Translations under genes and position numbers: made by a program
The notes under the pieces: generated by a model
The model's database searches: none
Told to the model about the DNA's origin: nothing
What the model saw: the letters and a program-made list of their open reading frames with translations, nothing else
Shown here: one piece after another, positions 4,951-24,836 of the stretch
How the letters are laid out: every line of letters begins with the position of its first letter
How positions within the stretch are numbered: the first letter of the stretch is position 1
IMG/VR virus record: IMGVR_UViG_2923286960_000003
Coordinates: 1 to 55,602 of that record
Source: a virus
Lineage: Duplodnaviria; Heunggongvirae; Uroviricota; Caudoviricetes
Reading direction: 5' to 3' (one strand)
DNA length: 55,602 nt

Positions 4951-5430
4951 GATGGCAGCCTCCGCGATGAATTTGATTAACTCACCACCGAGGTTTTCCA
5001 CGACCATAAGGGTGGTGAGACGTACAGGGGTGGAAATACCGGTCATCACGGAACCCGGCCAGCCTTGCGGCTGCCCTGCACGCCCCACCATAATGCGAAT
5101 GTGGCTGTGCTTAACGCATAAAAAAACCGCCTGAGCGCGGTTATGCGCCGTGAATGATTTCGGGTTTCCACGCCCGGCACCCGTTTTATGAGGTGCAGGT
5201 GCACTATAATTCCACCCGTTCTGGTTTTCAATAGCTACATTCAACATTTTCTCTACCTTTCATCACCGAAGTGAACTTTGTTGATGCGGTGCCTGGTGCC
5301 TCCAGGTGACGTTAACCAGTTAACAATTAACGTCGGATACAGAGCATTCCCGTTACGCCCGTAAAAGACCGCTTGTTTTAACTGTTCCGCGTGCGCTCAG
5401 CCGCATTCACCGCATCACAAAATTCACTTT

Positions 5431-5488
5431 AAAAACGGCGGCAGAGCAGTCACGGAGTAAAACTGATACCGCCAAACGTCACCAGAAA
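5431..5488 (-). ncRNA. dicF: DicF small regulatory RNA
   Basis: minus-strand sequence TTTCTGGTGACGTTTGGCGGTATCAGTTTTACTCCGTGACTGCTCTGCCGCC followed by T-run; matches remembered DicF with GGCGG/CCGCC terminator stem. Confidence 0.85.
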
Positions 5489-14344: not shown

Positions 14345-14635
14345 CCTGGCCTGAAGCATTAACAACGGTAGGAATTGCGATGGCGGTGGCGCTGGTGGTG
14401 TATTCGATTTGCCGCTGGGGATAAAAACGGTTTGCGGGAAAAGGAGAGTTAAGTAGAATTGCAGCGGGTGCTTGAGGCTATCTGTCTCAGGCATGAACAC
14501 CAAAAGGCAGATAGAGAAAAGCCCCAGTTAACATTACGCGTCCGGCAAGACGCTTAACATTAATCTGAGGCCATATCTATGCTCTACACACGTAGGTTAG
14601 CCTCTTACGTGCCGAAAGGCAAGGAGAAGCAGGCT

Positions 14636-14791
14636 ATGAAGCAGCAAAAGGCGATGCTAATCGCCCTGATCGTCATCTGTTTAACCGTCATTGTGACGGC
14701 ACTGGTAACGAGGAAAGACCTCTGCGAGGTACGAATCCGAACCGGCCAGACGGAGGTCGCTGTCTTCACAGCTTACGAACCTGAGGAGTAA
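14636..14791 (+). CDS. hokD: Hok/Gef family membrane toxin
   Basis: 51 aa MKQQKAMLIALIVICLTVIVTALVTRKDLCEVRIRTGQTEVAVFTAYEPEE matches my memory of HokD/RelF; strong RBS aaggagaag. Confidence 0.85.
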   Translation: MKQQKAMLIALIVICLTVIVTALVTRKDLCEVRIRTGQTEVAVFTAYEPEE

Positions 14792-18414: not shown

Positions 18415-18789
18415 ATGCTCATAGATTTGGTTTTACCTTACCCGCCGACGGTGAACACTTACTGGCGACGCCGTGGCAGCACATATTTTATCTCGGAGGA
18501 GGGAAAGCGTTATCGCCGGGCTGTGGCGCTTATTGTTCGCCAGCAGCGGCTGAAATTAAGCCTGTCCGGAAGGCTGGCGATAAAGGTGATTGCAGAGCCA
18601 CCGGATAAGCGTCGTCGCGACCTGGACAATATCCTGAAAGCACCGCTGGATGCGCTGACGCATGCGGGAGTGTTAATGGACGATGAGCAGTTTGATGAAA
18701 TCAATATCGTTCGTGGTCAGCCAGTATCTGGTGGACGTATGGGGGTGAAGATTTACCCCATAATGCATGAAGAGCAGGTCAAAAAATGA
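18415..18789 (+). CDS. rusA: RusA Holliday junction resolvase
   Basis: 124 aa; LPYPPTVNTYW...DKRRRDLDNILKAPLDALTHAGVLMDD matches RusA signature. Confidence 0.85.
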   Translation: MLIDLVLPYPPTVNTYWRRRGSTYFISEEGKRYRRAVALIVRQQRLKLSLSGRLAIKVIAEPPDKRRRDLDNILKAPLDALTHAGVLMDDEQFDEINIVRGQPVSGGRMGVKIYPIMHEEQVKK

Positions 18790-19607
18790 AACTGGAAGAT
18801 TTACCGAAATACTACTCCCCAAAATCCCCTGGCCTGACCGATGCATCGGCCTCAACGTCAAAAGATGCGCTGAGTATCACTGATGTGATGGCCGCGCAGG
18901 GCATGACACAGAATCGGGCTGAGATGGGGTTTTCTGCGTTCCTGGGGAAAATGGGCATCAGTATGAATGACAGGGCGCGGGCAACAGAATTACTGGCAGA
19001 TTATGCACTCAGTCGGTGCGATCGTGTGGCGGCGTTGAGAAAACTTCCGGCAGAAATAAAACCGGTAGTGATGCGCATTATGGCTTCGTATGCGTTTGAA
19101 GATTATGCCCGTAGCGCGGCGAGCAAAAAACAGTGCCCCTGCTGTCACGGAAAAAAATTTATTGAAAGCGAGGTTTTTACAAACAAGATCCAGTATCCGG
19201 ATGGTAAGCCACCAGTGTGGGCAAAGTGCACAAAAGGCGTGTATCCGTCTTACTGGGAAGAATGGAAAAAAGTCAGGGAGGTGGTAAAAGTTGCCTGTCC
19301 GGAGTGTGGCGGAAAGGGTGAGGTTTCCACCGCCTGTAAGGATTGCCGTGGGCGTGGTGTCGCCATTCATCGTGAAGAGTCGGTAAAACGTGGTATGCCT
19401 GTTATCAGAGATTGCCAGCGTTGTGGTGGTCGTGGCTGTGAAAGGCTGCCATCAACGGAGGCATTTAATGCCATATGCAAAGTGACGAGTGCTATCACGC
19501 TTGATACGTGGAAAAAATCAGTGAAACGCTTTTACGATACGTTGGTGGTTCGGTTTGACATTGAAGAGGCATGGGCGGAGCGGCAGTTAAAGAGGGTAAC
19601 GCGATAG
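18786..19607 (+). CDS. late gene antitermination protein Q
   Basis: 273 aa, translationally coupled to rusA; multiple CxxC zinc-finger pairs; precedes terminator and late genes. Confidence 0.75.
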   Translation: MKLEDLPKYYSPKSPGLTDASASTSKDALSITDVMAAQGMTQNRAEMGFSAFLGKMGISMNDRARATELLADYALSRCDRVAALRKLPAEIKPVVMRIMASYAFEDYARSAASKKQCPCCHGKKFIESEVFTNKIQYPDGKPPVWAKCTKGVYPSYWEEWKKVREVVKVACPECGGKGEVSTACKDCRGRGVAIHREESVKRGMPVIRDCQRCGGRGCERLPSTEAFNAICKVTSAITLDTWKKSVKRFYDTLVVRFDIEEAWAERQLKRVTR

Positions 19608-19689
19608 TGTTGTTGATTTTTCCCGAATCTGTGGTAAATTTGCTCTAACGATGGGCGTTTTATGCCTGACGTTAGAAGATTTTTTACAC

Positions 19690-19711
19690 CCCGCCGCCTG
19701 GCGGGTTTTTT
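19690..19711 (+). terminator. tR'-like rho-independent terminator downstream of Q
   Basis: cccgccgcctggcgggtttttt. Confidence 0.6.
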
Positions 19712-20181: not shown

Positions 20182-21231
20182 ATGCTTAATACTGTAAAAA
20201 TATCCAGTTGTGAGTTAATCAACGCCGACTGCCTGGAATTTATCCGGTCGTTACCCGAAAATTCTGTTGACCTGATAGTCACGGACCCGCCGTACTTTAA
20301 AGTGAAGCCTGAGGGCTGGGATAACCAGTGGAAGGGCGACGATGATTACCTGAAGTGGCTGGACCAGTGTCTGGCGCAGTTCTGGCGGGTGCTGAAACCT
20401 GCCGGAAGTCTTTACCTGTTCTGTGGTCATCGCCTGGCATCTGATATCGAAATCATGATGCGTGAACGCTTCAGTGTGCTGAACCATATTATCTGGGCGA
20501 AGCCGTCCGGACGCTGGAACGGATGCAACAAGGAAAGCCTGCGGGCGTATTTCCCCGCCACAGAGCGCATTCTGTTCGCGGAACATTATCAGGGGCCGTA
20601 TCGTCCGAAAGATGCCGGGTATGCGGCGAAGGGCAGTGCACTGAAACAGCATGTGATGGCCCCGCTGATTTCTTACTTTCGTGATGCGCGCGCGGCCCTG
20701 GGGATAACGGCAAAACAGATTGCAGATGCCACAGGAAAGAAAAACATGGTGTCGCACTGGTTCAGTGCCAGTCAGTGGCAGCTACCGAACGAAAGCGATT
20801 ATCTGAAATTACAGTCGCTGTTTGCCCGGGTGGCAGAAGAGAAACATCAGCGCGGTGAACTGGAAAAGCCCCACCACCAGCTGGTGGATACGTATACGTC
20901 ACTGAACCGGCAGTATGTGGAGCTGCAGAGTGAATATAAGCATCTGCGGCGGTATTTTGGTGTGACGGCGCAGGTGCCGTACACGGATGTGTGGACACAT
21001 AAACCGGTGCAGTTCTATCCCGGGAAACATCCGTGCGAAAAACCGGCAGAAATGCTGCAGCAGATAATCAGCGCAAGCAGTCGTCCGGGTGACCTGGTTG
21101 CAGATTTTTTTATGGGCTCAGGTTCAACGGTAAAAGCTGCACTGGCGCTCGGGCGTCGTGCGATTGGCGTTGAACTGGAGACCGGACGTTTTGAGCAGAC
21201 AGTCAGGGAAGTTCAGGATTTAATCGTTTGA
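20182..21231 (+). CDS. DNA methyltransferase (N6-adenine/N4-cytosine type, beta class), orphan
   Basis: DPPY motif (VTDPPYF) near N-terminus and FxGxG SAM motif (DFFMGSGST) near C-terminus; no adjacent restriction gene. Confidence 0.85.
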   Translation: MLNTVKISSCELINADCLEFIRSLPENSVDLIVTDPPYFKVKPEGWDNQWKGDDDYLKWLDQCLAQFWRVLKPAGSLYLFCGHRLASDIEIMMRERFSVLNHIIWAKPSGRWNGCNKESLRAYFPATERILFAEHYQGPYRPKDAGYAAKGSALKQHVMAPLISYFRDARAALGITAKQIADATGKKNMVSHWFSASQWQLPNESDYLKLQSLFARVAEEKHQRGELEKPHHQLVDTYTSLNRQYVELQSEYKHLRRYFGVTAQVPYTDVWTHKPVQFYPGKHPCEKPAEMLQQIISASSRPGDLVADFFMGSGSTVKAALALGRRAIGVELETGRFEQTVREVQDLIV

Positions 21232-21280
21232 AACGGATGAGATTGCAGAATTAATTACGCACCATTATTATTCTGCTTCC

Positions 21281-21356
21281 GGCCCTTTAGCTCAGTGGTG
21301 AGAGCGAGCGACTCATAATCGCCAGGTCGCTGGTTCAAATCCAGCAAGGGCCACCA
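21281..21356 (+). tRNA. tRNA with CAT anticodon (Met or Ile2/lysidine type)
   Basis: hand-folded cloverleaf: acceptor GGCCCTT/AAGGGCC, D-stem GCTC/GAGC, anticodon loop CTCATAA, T-stem GCTGG/CCAGC, encoded CCA. Confidence 0.8.
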
Positions 21357-21363
21357 TCACATA

Positions 21364-21440
21364 CCGCCATTAGCTCATCGGGATAGAGCGCCAGCCTTCG
21401 AAGCTGGCTGCGCGGGGTTCAAGTCCCCGATGGCGGTCCA
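21364..21440 (+). tRNA. tRNA-Arg (anticodon TCG by hand fold)
   Basis: acceptor CCGCCAT/ATGGCGG, D-arm TAGCTC...GAGC, anticodon loop CTTCGAA, T-stem CGGGG/CCCCG, CCA; C1-G72 and U73 are unusual. Confidence 0.65.
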
Positions 21441-21453
21441 TTATCTGTATCCT

Positions 21454-21510
21454 GCGTTGTTAGCTCAGCCGGACAGAGCAATTGCCTTCTAAGCAGCTGT
21501 GGTTGCACTC
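21454..21510 (+). pseudogene. 3'-truncated tRNA-Arg (TCT) remnant
   Basis: acceptor 5' half, D-arm and anticodon arm (loop CTTCTAA) intact, but no T-arm and no 3' acceptor complement downstream. Confidence 0.45.
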
Positions 21511-21696
21511 CTGTTGTTTCTGGTGGTGATGGTGGACTTCAGCAGCCGGATAATGTCGGTGCTGTCTGATGGTGTTTTGGTGGCGGGTGTGTGGTTGTTG
21601 CTTTCCCGTTGCTGAAAAAGAAAGCATCAGGCGATTAGCAGGGTATCAGTTACCCGTTGAAATTTTTAAATACCTCACAATTCCACAGCTTGATGA

Positions 21697-21893
21697 TTGT
21701 CTGGCTGCCGGAGAATTTGTTAAAAATTACATCGCATGGTGAATCCCCCTCAGCGGCGGGGCATCTGGCAAAGTGTATGATCCAGAGAACATGCAAATTC
21801 AGTAGACAGGCTGAATTTACCGGGAGGCCCCTGGCACCATGCGACAGACAGAAATTAGGCTATACTTCAGCCCCTCTCCGGAGGGGCTTTTCT
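21697..21893 (+). ncRNA. structured ncRNA-like element, copy 1
   Basis: promoter-like TTGTCT-17-TTAAAA, 8-bp closing helix GCATGGTG(21734)/CACCATGC(21835) enclosing several hairpins, then terminator agcccctctccggaggggcttttct. Confidence 0.4.
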
Positions 21894-22156
21894 GTGCAGG
21901 ATGTGTCACAGTTTCCTGAATTCTGAGTACTGTCCTGTTACTCAGGGTGCTATATTTTCTGACGTGATGAAAGTCTGCCGGAAGGCGGAACGTATCGGAA
22001 ATGACCCAGTAGAGAAAACGTTGACTCAGATACCGATGCTGAGTTACCGGGAAACCGGCATCACATGACCGCTATCCTTCCAGGCTCGCTCCGGCGGGCC
22101 TTTTTACTGCAGAAAACAGTTTTCCCGTAAAATGCCACGTTGCTCATAATTCAGGC

Positions 22157-22350
22157 TGGCGATTATTGTCTGGCCGGCGGGAAGTTTGTTAAAAAATTTC
22201 GCATGGTGAATCCCCCTGTGCGGAGGGGTAATCAGCGAGTAGGTATATGGGATAATCGCGGATTCAGGTGCTGGTACTGAATTCACCGGGAGGCACCCGG
22301 CACCATGCAATGGCACATAGCGCCACTCTCCAGCCCCTCTCCGGAGGGGC
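22157..22350 (+). ncRNA. structured ncRNA-like element, copy 2
   Basis: same architecture as copy 1 (closing helix 22192/22292; terminator 22324-22341); stems conserved, loop sequences diverged. Confidence 0.4.
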
Positions 22351-22386
22351 TGTTTATATTGATTTTGTCAGATGTGAGTAAACTGC

Positions 22387-22722
22387 TTATGGACTTTGTT
22401 GTTTTAGCCCATAAGGACATATTTGCAGAGTGCAACGGTTATTAAAGCATTCATTCAATACGTTATCTGTATTTGTAGGGCATTCCTGGCTGTTTTTGAT
22501 TAAATTCCAGAATGTTTTATTGAATGGTACTACGTTGTAAATGGTTACAGGTAGCACTTTGTTATTGAGCATGATGCCTGTGTGAGTCAGTGTAAATATA
22601 CTTTCAGGAGGTAAGAAAGCATCCGATTGATACCAGATTATTAATTTTATTTTACTCCATATGACTGAAAAAGATATTCCGCATGATGGCTGGATAACTG
22701 TATCAATCACAATCCACTTCAT
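22387..22722 (-). CDS. hypothetical protein (111 aa) in AT-rich island
   Basis: ORF with AAGGAAA RBS; very AT-rich; no recognisable motif. Confidence 0.3.
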
Positions 22723-22967
22723 TTAGTTTCCTTGTTTATGCCTTGCTGGTGATGTTCTGAAAAGTATAAATGATATTTTTGATTGTAAACCATAGAGCAG
22801 AATTATTTTTCTGATGTTGTTTATTGTTTATTTAAATGCAGGGTGGTTTATATCTCGTCTTGTAGTTTATCCATGCATATCTGCTTGATGATGAGGTTTT
22901 TATTTAAGGTATGGTTTTGTGTTTTTTCTGTATTACATGTCAGGTATTTTAAAGAATCATTTTTCAG

Positions 22968-24836
22968 ATGGTGGAAAGAACCATGGCATTTAAACACTAT
23001 GATGTTGTCAGGGCGGCGTCGCCGTCAGATCTTGCGGAAAAGCTGACACATAAACTGAAAGAGGGCTGGCAGCCGTTTGGTAGTCCGGTGGCCATAACCC
23101 CTTATACCCTGATGCAGGCGATTGCAGCAGAAGGTGATGTGGTCGTCAGTGGTGCAACTGAGCCGGAGTGGTACTACGTCATCGTACTGGCCGGGCAGTC
23201 CAATGCCATGGCTTACGGTGAAGGGCTTCCGCTGCCGGATTCATACGATGCTCCGGATCCGCGCATTAAACAGCTGGCGCGCCGCAGTACAGTGACGCCG
23301 GGTGGGGCTGCCTGCAGATATAACGATATTATTCCGGCCGACCACTGCCTGCATGATGTGCAGGATATGAGTACGCTGAATCATCCGAAGGCAGACCTGA
23401 GCAAAGGGCAGTACGGCTGTGTCGGCCAGGGCTTACATATTGCCAAAAAACTGCTTCCGTATATCCCGAATAACGCGGGGATCCTGCTGGTACCATGCTG
23501 TCGTGGTGGTTCGGCATTCACCCAGGGCGCGGAGGGGACATTCAGTGCGGACACGGGGGCCAGCCAGGATTCGGCACGCTGGGGTGTGGGTAAACCGTTA
23601 TATCAGGACCTGATTGCGCGCACTAAAGCTGCATTACAGAAGAACCCGAAAAATGTGTTGCTGGCGGTGTGCTGGATGCAGGGAGAGTTTGACATGAGCG
23701 CCGCCACCTACGCACAGCAACCTGCGCTGTTTACAGCCATGCTGAAGCAGTTTCGTGCTGACCTCACTGTGTTTAACGCGCAGTGTCATGGTGGCAGTGC
23801 TGCAGATGTGCCGTGGATTTGTGGTGACACGACGTATTACTGGAAAAATACATACGCTACCCAGTACGACACCGTGTACGGAGGGTATAAAAACAGGGAG
23901 AGTGAGGGCGTTTATTTTGTGCCCTTCATGACAGACGGTAACGGCGTCAATACCGCCACTAACGCACCGGCAGAAGATCCGGATATTCCGGCATCAGGAT
24001 ATTACGGTGCGGCATCGAGAACGAATGGAAACCAGGTATCATCAAACCGCCCGACACATTTCAGTTCATGGGCGCGCAGGAGCATTATTCCGGATCGTAT
24101 GGCAACTGCTATTCTGAACGTAGCCGGTCGCACCTCAGCCTTCATCAGTGGTAAGGCACCGGAAATCAAACCCTCGCCCGGCGGCGACACGCCATCGGGG
24201 CCGTCTGAAGATGCATCCGTACGCACAATCTCCCTGTTGCCGACAGCCGGAGATGCTGCTGCGCAGGGCTGGAGCATTAAGAATGGCGGAATTCAGTTGT
24301 CAGATGGTGTATTTAAGATCGCCAAGCAGAGCAATAAAGCCTGGTCCCTGACGCGCCCGGTGGATGACGCAGTCTCCCTGCTGACACGGGGTGGCAGACT
24401 GAGCTGTAAGTTTCGACTGTCAGGCGCACTGACCAACAACCAGTTCGGTCTGGGAATTTATCTGTATACCGATGTAGCGTTACCTGACGTCGTGGCGATG
24501 ACCGGGACTGGTAACCCGTTCCTGATGTCGTTCTTCACCCAGACCACAGACGGCAAACTGAATCTGATGCATCACAAGAAAGCCGGAAACACAAAGTTGG
24601 GCGAGTTCGGGAATTACAGTAACGACTGGCAGACGCTGGAGCTGGTGTTCACCGCCGGCAGTGCCACGGTTACTCCGAAACTGAATGGACTGGTTGGCCC
24701 GGCATTCCAGGTCATAAAAGACAGTCTGACACTGGGGCTGAATGCGCTGACGCTGACGGATGTTACAAAAAATGCAGCGTATGGCGTTGAGATAGAAAGT
24801 CTGGTGCTGGAGATAAATGCACCGGCATCATCATAA
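22968..24836 (+). CDS. prophage sialate O-acetylesterase, NanS-p-like (SASA/SGNH hydrolase)
   Basis: 622 aa; VLAGQSNAMAYGEGLP (GQSN block) and N-terminal KHYDVV segment; sits upstream of lysis genes as in Stx-type phages; start may be ATG 22983. Confidence 0.7.
   Translation: MVERTMAFKHYDVVRAASPSDLAEKLTHKLKEGWQPFGSPVAITPYTLMQAIAAEGDVVVSGATEPEWYYVIVLAGQSNAMAYGEGLPLPDSYDAPDPRIKQLARRSTVTPGGAACRYNDIIPADHCLHDVQDMSTLNHPKADLSKGQYGCVGQGLHIAKKLLPYIPNNAGILLVPCCRGGSAFTQGAEGTFSADTGASQDSARWGVGKPLYQDLIARTKAALQKNPKNVLLAVCWMQGEFDMSAATYAQQPALFTAMLKQFRADLTVFNAQCHGGSAADVPWICGDTTYYWKNTYATQYDTVYGGYKNRESEGVYFVPFMTDGNGVNTATNAPAEDPDIPASGYYGAASRTNGNQVSSNRPTHFSSWARRSIIPDRMATAILNVAGRTSAFISGKAPEIKPSPGGDTPSGPSEDASVRTISLLPTAGDAAAQGWSIKNGGIQLSDGVFKIAKQSNKAWSLTRPVDDAVSLLTRGGRLSCKFRLSGALTNNQFGLGIYLYTDVALPDVVAMTGTGNPFLMSFFTQTTDGKLNLMHHKKAGNTKLGEFGNYSNDWQTLELVFTAGSATVTPKLNGLVGPAFQVIKDSLTLGLNALTLTDVTKNAAYGVEIESLVLEINAPASS

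Follow-up and report, generated by a model that had tools for sequence, protein, structure and literature searches.

STnc100 is a curated RNA family that standard genome annotation omits. Its members, which are small RNAs (sRNAs), adjoin Shiga-toxin (stx) genes and are among the most abundant Hfq-bound RNAs of enterohemorrhagic Escherichia coli (EHEC), and stx2-adjacent variation in the family has been linked to the outcome of hemolytic uremic syndrome (HUS). The family is already known, having also been published as EcOnc05, EcOnc06, EcOnc27 and sRNA103, and PasD is a relative. Here we report its rediscovery in a 55,602-nucleotide (nt) stretch of DNA from a virus of the Caudoviricetes (IMG/VR record IMGVR_UViG_2923286960_000003, positions 1 to 55,602; in the following, "the window" refers to this whole stretch), in which a sequence-only reading had noticed two tandem structured RNA-like elements. 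As judged by sequence comparison, the region holds three tandem STnc100-family sRNA genes of a lambdoid prophage, two of them intact copies and one, lying between these, decayed.

In E. coli EDL933, 11 STnc100 loci are transcribed, as determined by RNA sequencing (RNA-seq), with Northern-blot confirmation for one of them (PMC5331693). Tree et al. 2014 (PMC4104026) recovered Hfq-crosslinked sRNAs from the "moron" slot downstream of the Q-antiterminated late promoter PR' in at least eight Sakai prophages. Hfq binding, as detected by crosslinking and analysis of cDNA (CRAC), was reported for EcOnc05, EcOnc06 and EcOnc27 (PMC4104026); EcOnc05, the RNA of prophage Sp4, was the fifth most recovered Hfq-CRAC sRNA in O157 Sakai, while the Hfq-bound EcOnc27 (= sRNA103) is encoded just 3' of stx2B, converging on AsxR. 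As the coordinates of that study refer to an older Sakai record, with an offset of about +139 near Sp5 (from AsxR) and about 0 near Sp4, our placement of the Hfq-CRAC clusters is approximate. Overexpression of sRNA103 raised fimZ and espA transcripts, sequence features predicting HUS overlap the stx2-adjacent STnc100, and STnc100 has been detected in outer-membrane vesicles of Shiga-toxin-producing E. coli (STEC). PasD1 and PasD2 of enteropathogenic E. coli (EPEC) are Hfq-dependent, as seen in Northern blots with an hfq deletion strain, and have targets identified by sequencing of ligated, interacting RNAs (RIL-seq); a 2026 preprint (Zhu, Shabalina and Storz) proposed that the PasD RNAs are structural homologues of STnc100, with a function not elucidated. 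PasD2 has been published with its 5' end (NC_011601:741157) at the first G of GCAUGGUG, which TTGACT-17-TTAAAA precedes; the RNA has its 3' end in the terminator's U-tract and carries its seed, UGUGAG, in a single-stranded linker.

Family membership of the units

Upon scanning the window against Rfam 15, we determined that both copies are RF02076, "Gammaproteobacterial sRNA STnc100". Copy 1 (21704-21897, 138 bits) and copy 2 (22173-22361, 132.5 bits) each match model positions 1-206 of 206, the gathering score being 47. The sequence-only reading had been unable to match the elements to any sRNA family it knew, but the search it proposed, with covariance models from Rfam and then with a custom model, led both to this curated family and to covariation across homologues. 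Furthermore, the reverse complement of the Northern probe used for EcOnc05 (Tree et al. 2014, PMC4104026), AATCAGCGAGTAGGTATATGGGATAATCGCGGATT, equals window positions 22231-22265 exactly; since the probe target is identical to the variable core of copy 2, we consider copy 2 an EcOnc05-type gene.

Three motifs that had been described for the copies were all located. The promoter-like TTGTCT-N17-TTAAAA is found exactly at 21697-21725 and 22166-22194, the closing helix GCATGGTG...CACCATGC at 21734-21842 and 22201-22308, and the identical 20-nt terminator stem AGCCCCTCTCCGGAGGGGCT at 21869-21888 and 22332-22351. The window contains each of them just twice, while 100 shuffles led us to expect none. 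One dimension had to be revised: 108-109 nt is the total span of the closing helix, which encloses 92-93 nt rather than about 108.

A third, weaker hairpin-plus-terminator unit had been suspected at about 21905-22107. This unit is real, although 21933-22108 is the better placement. In a permissive scan, it scored 30 bits with RF02076 (E 2.9e-4), under the cut-off of 47; with R1, a covariance model that we built from a MAFFT alignment of 52 cores (see below), it scored 37 bits (E 2e-9), as compared with 86.5 bits for copy 1 and 97.9 bits for copy 2. As unit 3 is sub-threshold in RF02076 but matches R1 and keeps helices P1 and P4 and the pseudoknot described below, we regard it as a degenerate relative which, by the curated cut-off, is no member. 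Aligned with copies 1 and 2, unit 3 shows their architecture in a different sequence, with compensatory changes, and has a GAAA-loop hairpin where the copies have CCGGG-N5-CCCGG. At the aligned position, it has no TTGTCT-17-TTAAAA promoter.

The window has no match to the models for AgvB and AsxR (RF02702/RF02703) at their gathering score, and relaxing the threshold to E<=1 gave none in 21200-22800 either; as a positive control, the AsxR model scored 88 bits in Sakai Sp5.

Fold, covariation and pseudoknot

An exact-motif scan of IMG/VR provided a sample of 120 loci with 112 unique elements, 77 of them mutually less than 93% identical. For the MAFFT alignment, we used 52 cores of less than 90% identity, including the three window units, PasD2 and Sakai EcOnc27. 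A scan of genome contigs with the 15-base anchor TGAATNNACCGGGAGGC was disregarded, as its 120 matches were mostly due to chance and came from unrelated phyla. From the 52-core alignment, RNAalifold recovered helices P1, P2, P4 and P5 and, in addition, the short P3, formed by GC(R) after P2 and (Y)GC before P4; for one of the P3 pairs, 24 sequences have GC, 19 have AU and 4 have UA. We accordingly model the structured domain of each intact unit, about 108 nt long, as a five-helix junction, P1-P5.

In the MAFFT alignment, 88.9% of the cells are paired, versus 39-44% for slid partners, and the covariation score of 0.295 (0.05-0.11 for slid partners) was reached in none of 500 shuffles. A model-based alignment of 87 distinct sequences, made with R1, has 95.6% of its cells paired, with changes on both sides in 19 of 26 pairs and a covariation score of 0.311 (slid partners: <=0.082; 0/500 shuffles reach it). 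Being fitted to the model, this second alignment leans toward the model structure, but the MAFFT result agrees independently. While the helices covary, the junction and loop sequences are nearly invariant (GGUGAAU; CACCGGGAGGCACCCGGCACC, outside the search anchor), and a hypervariable insert of 11-44 nt across the family separates the pseudoknot strand from P3. The structure line for RF02076 from cmscan, a program that cannot display pseudoknots, has a different middle region and no pseudoknot.

These results, together with the full-length RF02076 matches and the conserved position of the promoter, bear out the earlier conclusion that the region encodes structured RNA rather than protein. However, the evidence for it is the covariation in P1, P3, P4 and the pseudoknot, and not the two stems that had been cited as showing compensatory substitutions. 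One of these (ccggg-N5-cctgg versus ccggg-N5-cccgg) shows only a one-sided change from G-C to G-U; the other (tctgg/ccaga versus agcga/tcgcg) sits in the hypervariable insert and compares non-homologous helices, agcga/tcgcg having only 4 pairs.

Directly after the 5' strand of P3, 6-9 nt are complementary to the P4 loop, and this pseudoknot is formed by many different sequences: AAUGAUC:GAUCAUU in PasD2 (AAUGAUCG:UGAUCAUU), and CUGGUG:CACCGG, CCAGUC:GACUGG, CUAGGC:GUCUAG and UGCCAGGUC:GACCUGGCA in other homologues (for the window units, see Table 1). MAFFT distributes the P4 loop over two registers, so that only 60% of the cells are paired when its alignment is read in one fixed register; we therefore relied on a register-free comparison of own with permuted partners. 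Across the 52 sequences, own complementarity averaged 6.83 bp, compared with 4.87 +/- 0.15 bp for permuted partners (0/5000 permutations reach it), and a pseudoknot of at least 6 bp is present in 44 of them, with 41 distinct helices. A conserved local alternative to the pseudoknot, of the tctgg/ccaga type, was also considered and rejected, own complementarity being 3.52 versus 3.68 for permuted partners; local pairing within the insert is thus not conserved in the family and provides no evidence for a conformational switch. We found no description of a pseudoknot of the STnc100 family in the literature searched: the word "pseudoknot" does not occur in the preprint by Zhu et al., and a search of titles and abstracts returned none on the structure of the family.

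Transcription signals, genomic slot and distribution

Besides family membership and the covarying fold, the present analysis establishes that the positions of promoters and terminators are conserved, and defines the genomic slot of the units (Table 1). Among 42 non-redundant upstream regions, many unrelated sequences have TTGAC(A/G/T)-17/18-TAnnnT, with the -10 element ending 7 nt before the (U)GGUG of P1, and the TTGTCT-17-TTAAAA of the window sits at the homologous position. A stringently defined hairpin followed by a T-run is present in 70 of the 112 elements, within the at most ~70 nt available downstream; the linker after P1 has a median length of 24 nt (interquartile range 22-26), and 32 different terminator hairpins occur across the family. 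Like Hfq-type sRNA genes, both window copies have a predicted promoter of their own and a Rho-independent terminator (terminator-like sites at 21869-88 and 22331-52). The promoters of the relatives, the published ends of PasD2 and the terminators lead us to predict RNAs of ~160 nt (21734 to ~21893) and ~157 nt (22201 to ~22357).

On the minus strand, a generic promoter scan called a promoter-like site (TTAACA-16-GACAAT, 9/12 matches) at 21696-21723 and 22165-22192 that overlaps both plus-strand promoters; the call may reflect a divergent or antisense promoter, or else just the partial palindrome in this sequence. A sigma-54 promoter, suggested by eye, was unsupported.

Table 1. Positions in the window of the elements of the three units and of genes flanking them
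Feature	Position	Strand	Details
Copy 1, predicted promoter	21697-21726	+	-35 TTGTCT 21697-21702; 17-nt spacer; -10 TTAAAA/TAAAAA 21720-21726, TG before -10; exact motif
Copy 1, core	21734-21842	+	RF02076, R1, RNAfold, pseudoknot test
Copy 1, helices	P1 21734-41/21835-42; P2 ~21745-49/21755-60; P3 21761-63/21792-94; P4 21795-21802/21811-18; P5 21820-24/21830-34		
Copy 1, linker and terminator	21843-21893	+	linker 21843-21868 GACAGACAGAAAUUAGGCUAUACUUC; stem 21869-21888, then UUUUCUG; terminator scan and exact stem
Unit 3	21933-22108	+	core 21962-22066; terminator 22082-22101, then TTTTT
Unit 3, helices			P1 GUGAUG/CAUCAC; GGAA-loop hairpin replacing P2; P4 ACUCAG/CUGAGU; GAAA-loop hairpin replacing P5
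Unit 3, pseudoknot			UAUCGG:CCGAUG, 6 bp
Copy 2, predicted promoter	22166-22195	+	-35 TTGTCT 22166-22171; 17-nt spacer; -10 TTAAAA/TAAAAA 22189-22195
Copy 2, core	22201-22308	+	RF02076, R1, RNAfold z -2.56, 7-bp pseudoknot
Copy 2, helices	P1 22201-08/22301-08; P2 ~22212-16/22222-27; P3 22228-30/22257-59; P4 22260-67/22277-84; P5 22286-90/22296-22300		
Copy 2, pseudoknot	22231-37 : 22269-75		AUCAGCG : UGCUGGU, 7 bp
Copy 2, hypervariable insert	22238-22256	+	
Copy 2, linker and terminator	22309-22357	+	linker 22309-22330 AAUGGCACAUAGCGCCACUCUC; stem 22331-22352, then UUUAUAUU
Q antiterminator	18786-19607		PF03589
tRNAs	21281-21440		two true tRNAs (ARAGORN, Rfam)
SASA/NanS-p-type esterase	22968-24836		

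A lambdoid prophage of E. coli NCTC86 matches the window at 100% identity. Of 5426 complete E. coli genomes, 403 carry at least 80% of the 1.25 kb that comprise the tRNAs and the three units. In order, the genes are Q, DNA methyltransferase, tRNA-Ile2, tRNA-Arg, a small open reading frame (ORF) with domain DUF3927, then the three units themselves, an opposite-strand IraM-like gene, esterase, holin and lysozyme. Hence the units (21697-22357), co-oriented with the late genes, fill the "moron" slot between Q/PR' and the lysis genes, and the remark that stx genes sit in this slot in Shiga-toxin phages is upheld by the family member of Stx phages that lies directly downstream of stx2B. Q is directly followed (~19612-19711) by TTGATT-16-TAAATT, which resembles the late promoter PR', and, ~60-70 nt past it, by a strong terminator (CCCGCCGCCTGGCGGG with T-run, 19690-19705); this module corresponds to the StxS / 6S leader. 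As in some phages the element follows soon after Q, we considered whether the units are a late PR' leader of the lambda 6S / StxS type, but rejected this here because of the separate PR'-like promoter and terminator right after Q and because the units, in three copies, lie ~2.1 kb after Q.

Several observations concern the neighboring genes and their annotation. The IraM-like anti-adaptor gene (22387-22722, minus strand; named by the Prokaryotic Genome Annotation Pipeline, PGAP, and without Pfam match) converges on the terminator of copy 2 and occupies the place that a convergent AsxR/AgvB-type sRNA has in Sakai prophages. PGAP annotates no RNA at the units and places a partial minus-strand pseudogene (22191-22316) over copy 2; RefSeq has minus-strand "hypothetical protein" pseudogenes over copy 2 and over PasD2 in E2348/69 (locus L244, 298-539), and these calls are probably spurious. 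Right after tRNA-Arg(UCG) lies a truncated tRNA-Arg(UCU) (~21446-21495) of the argO type, which is identical to Sakai argO1 through the anticodon loop and then diverges; the DUF3927 ORF (21499-21615) begins where it breaks off. The tRNA with a CAU anticodon (21281-21356) is called Met by ARAGORN and tRNA-Ile by RefSeq, and is probably of the ileZ type, read as Ile after lysidine modification. Other Rfam matches in the window are a sok antitoxin RNA (14466-14641, plus strand, 117 bits) and, on the minus strand, a cluster of C4 antisense RNA, isrK and DicF (5008-5487).

The family is matched in 368 sequenced phage records, which include Stx1 and Stx2 phages (933W, H-19B and VT1-Sakai among them), further phages of Escherichia and Shigella, and phages of Klebsiella. 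Among the matches listed, not one carries an RNA annotation; at these sites, the phage records and PGAP have "none", "hypothetical protein" or a pseudogene. Tandem arrays of at least two units were found in 19 of 99 IMG/VR loci, one of which has five. Arrays of 3-5 members are seen in L006, L011, L022 and L056, with a regular unit spacing of ~250-260 nt in the last three, and the order intact-degenerate-intact seen in the window recurs in L010, L028, L031, L046, L051, L065, L115 and L119.

A fourth, divergent member (5280-5419, minus strand) lies in the window itself, between DicF (5436-5487) and isrK/C4 (5008-5196). It scores 63 bits with R1 and 38 bits, below the cut-off, with RF02076, shows compensatory changes in P5 (CCUGG/CCAGG) and P2 (GCG..CGC), helices that do not vary elsewhere, and has a perfect 7-bp pseudoknot, CAGUUAA:UUAACUG. 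As no terminator was found before that of isrK, this member may form the 5' part of a longer RNA made up of the core plus isrK.

The comparison adds to the family a structural model, consisting of the five-helix junction with P3, the strongly covarying pseudoknot, a start at the base of P1, the ~24-nt linker as probable location of the seed, the arrays and the fourth copy, which could guide probing and mutational work.

Function of the RNAs and comparison with known systems

With a probability of about 0.8, we read the region as three tandem STnc100 genes, each intact one being an independently transcribed unit for an Hfq-assisted base-pairing sRNA. For expression, Hfq binding and targets, we draw on the literature on homologues, by analogy with which the window RNAs are most likely Hfq-assisted base-pairing sRNAs made in lysogens. 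Each intact unit would be its own transcription unit, with a sigma-70 promoter that starts the RNA at the first base of the 8-bp closing helix; the ~108-nt domain, predicted in copy 2 to be locked by the pseudoknot that joins the segment after P3 to the P4 loop, would be followed by a single-stranded linker of ~24 nt and the intrinsic terminator, for a predicted RNA of ~157-160 nt. In the lysogen, production of the RNAs would not depend on the late promoter, a separate element just after Q; the RNAs would bind Hfq and, most likely, pair in trans with host or prophage mRNAs or with other sRNAs via the linker and/or the hypervariable insert, while the 5' domain probably buries the 5' end and stabilizes the RNA, and/or binds a partner. 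During lytic growth, Q-modified polymerase would read through the terminators of the units. The pairing mechanism of both copies and the role of the 5' domain are what we infer, and some novelty attaches only to the purpose of this conserved domain. If PasD is a guide, the seed of copy 1 may lie in its linker, which resembles the region of the EcOnc27 Northern probe, between closing helix and terminator; the PasD seed UGUGAG is missing from the linkers of both window copies.

Several points speak against this assignment. The evidence for expression comes from homologues in other strains, and targets are on record for PasD but none for EcOnc05-type or copy-1-type RNAs. The -10 hexamers of the window (TTAAAA/TAAAAA) are weak, a generic promoter scan made no call on the plus strand, and the U-tails are short or interrupted, which is atypical of strong Hfq binders. 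In copy 1, the pseudoknot is nearly lost (4 bp, UCUG:CAGG), a local hairpin, UCUGG/CCAGA, being found in its place. For EcOnc05 and EcOnc27, Tree et al. (PMC4104026) reported sizes of ~222 nt and 235/247 nt from Northern blots, which are longer than the distances from P1 to the terminator (158 nt and 172 nt, respectively), so that the 5' or 3' ends may differ in some contexts. Finally, about 108 nt of compact, conserved, pseudoknotted RNA is far more structure than base pairing needs; hence pairing may not be the whole function.

The conserved 5' domain could be a module dedicated to binding RNA polymerase, a small molecule or a protein of phage or host, with a second function independent of base pairing. 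This view, which draws on the >80 distinct variants in Escherichia, Shigella and Klebsiella phages, on the arrays and on the reuse beside DicF/isrK, strikes us as unlikely. That binding rather than pairing is the main job, the domain being a sensor or binding module such as an aptamer akin to a riboswitch or a decoy that captures RNA polymerase or a protein, is a doubtful proposition: a compact five-helix junction with a pseudoknot, near-invariant junctions and loops and covarying helices would suit it, as would the reuse of the same fold in another operon of the prophage and the description of the family's function in the literature as unknown, but we found neither a conserved alternative pairing nor an expression platform, the terminators are unrelated between subfamilies (32 distinct hairpins), copy 1 is without the pseudoknot, and PasD is a functional Hfq sRNA although it lacks P5. 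No Rfam riboswitch or ribozyme model matched at E<=1 in a permissive scan of the units' region. As to transcription attenuation, we found no mutually exclusive pairing that is conserved, and what comes next downstream is another sRNA unit or an opposite-strand gene rather than a regulated ORF. A riboswitch-like antiterminator was likewise rejected: in the E. coli type, P2 and the terminator have the same 3' strand, GAGGGGC, but, given the unrelated terminators of the other subfamilies, this identity is not a feature of the family. The units might also act mainly in cis, as promoter-terminator insulators in the path from Q to the lysis genes that stop polymerase not modified by Q before the esterase and lysis genes in the lysogen, the stable RNAs being by-products or the RNA domain acting on the transcribing polymerase. 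We judge this improbable. The units are always co-oriented with the late genes and in the Q-to-lysis interval, arrays of 2-5 units are common, Klebsiella phage P7641 has two more terminators between the element and the holins, and StxS, a short PR' transcript that is ended at tR' and doubles as an sRNA, sets a precedent; however, a bare terminator needs neither a conserved promoter exactly at P1 nor a covarying pseudoknotted domain of 108 nt, the fourth member sits in the early-left region by DicF/isrK without a terminator directly after it, PasD has RIL-seq targets in trans, and the late promoter and leader of the prophage are located elsewhere. A cis insulator role of the terminators alongside the sRNA role is possible.

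We give very little credence to a tRNA-derived or tRNA-like core, for example a substrate of RNase P. P5 does abut the 3' strand of P1 like a T-arm on an acceptor stem, tRNA-Ile2, tRNA-Arg and the truncated tRNA-Arg(UCU) are immediately upstream, and C4-type phage RNAs, which are present elsewhere in the window, are RNase P substrates. Yet ARAGORN finds no tRNA at the units, the Rfam tRNA model does not match there at E<=1, five helices with a pseudoknot and no 3' CCA do not make a cloverleaf, and the conserved promoter puts the start at P1, so that processing is not needed. That the region is a decayed protein-coding gene is barely conceivable, despite the PGAP pseudo-coding sequence at 22191-22316 on the minus strand, a similar one over PasD2 in E2348/69, and ORFs at 21657-21926 (plus strand, 89 aa, spanning copy 1) and 22104-22316 (minus strand). 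No overlapping ORF has a Pfam match, in line with the earlier statement that no credible ORF spans the elements; the variation obeys base-pairing rules, the insert has indels of arbitrary length, an AUG in the 3' strand of P1 is not conserved and covaries as part of the helix, and the Rfam match is strong. Small ORFs that would start from a Shine-Dalgarno-like GGAGG plus AUG in P5/P1 (26 aa in copy 1; 46 aa, 22305-22445, in copy 2) were dismissed, as the AUG is absent in most relatives and there is no Pfam match.

Reading the intact units as Hfq-assisted base-pairing sRNA genes, we can compare them with the described RNAs of lambdoid prophages. AgvB and AsxR, which act as anti-sRNAs, share the moron slot with the units and in Sakai converge on STnc100-family genes as "dyads", but these RNAs, 51-60 nt long and located on the opposite strand, are unrelated to the units. 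The late leaders StxS and lambda 6S resemble the units in that a constitutive promoter and a nearby terminator in the lambdoid late region yield a short, Hfq-binding RNA in lysogens; unlike them, the units are not at PR', occur in multiple tandem copies and show no similarity in sequence or structure.

PasD is much like the window units, with its promoter, a 5' end at P1, helices P1-P4, pseudoknot, linker and terminator, and with its location between a DUF3927 ORF and the esterase. It differs from the window copies in scoring ~41 bits with both RF02076 and R1, in lacking P5, in its shorter P2 and in its longer linker of ~50 nt, which carries UGUGAG. As for STnc100/EcOnc05/06/27 themselves, the window, in contrast to the O157 EcOnc loci, has three tandem units and no stx genes, an opposite-strand IraM-like gene replaces the convergent AsxR/AgvB-type partner of Sakai, and copy 1, unlike these relatives, is without a pseudoknot. 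The slot, however, is the same, after tRNAs (or stx) and before the NanS-p esterase and lysis genes, and the terminator hairpin of the member in Sakai Sp4 is the same as that of the window copies.

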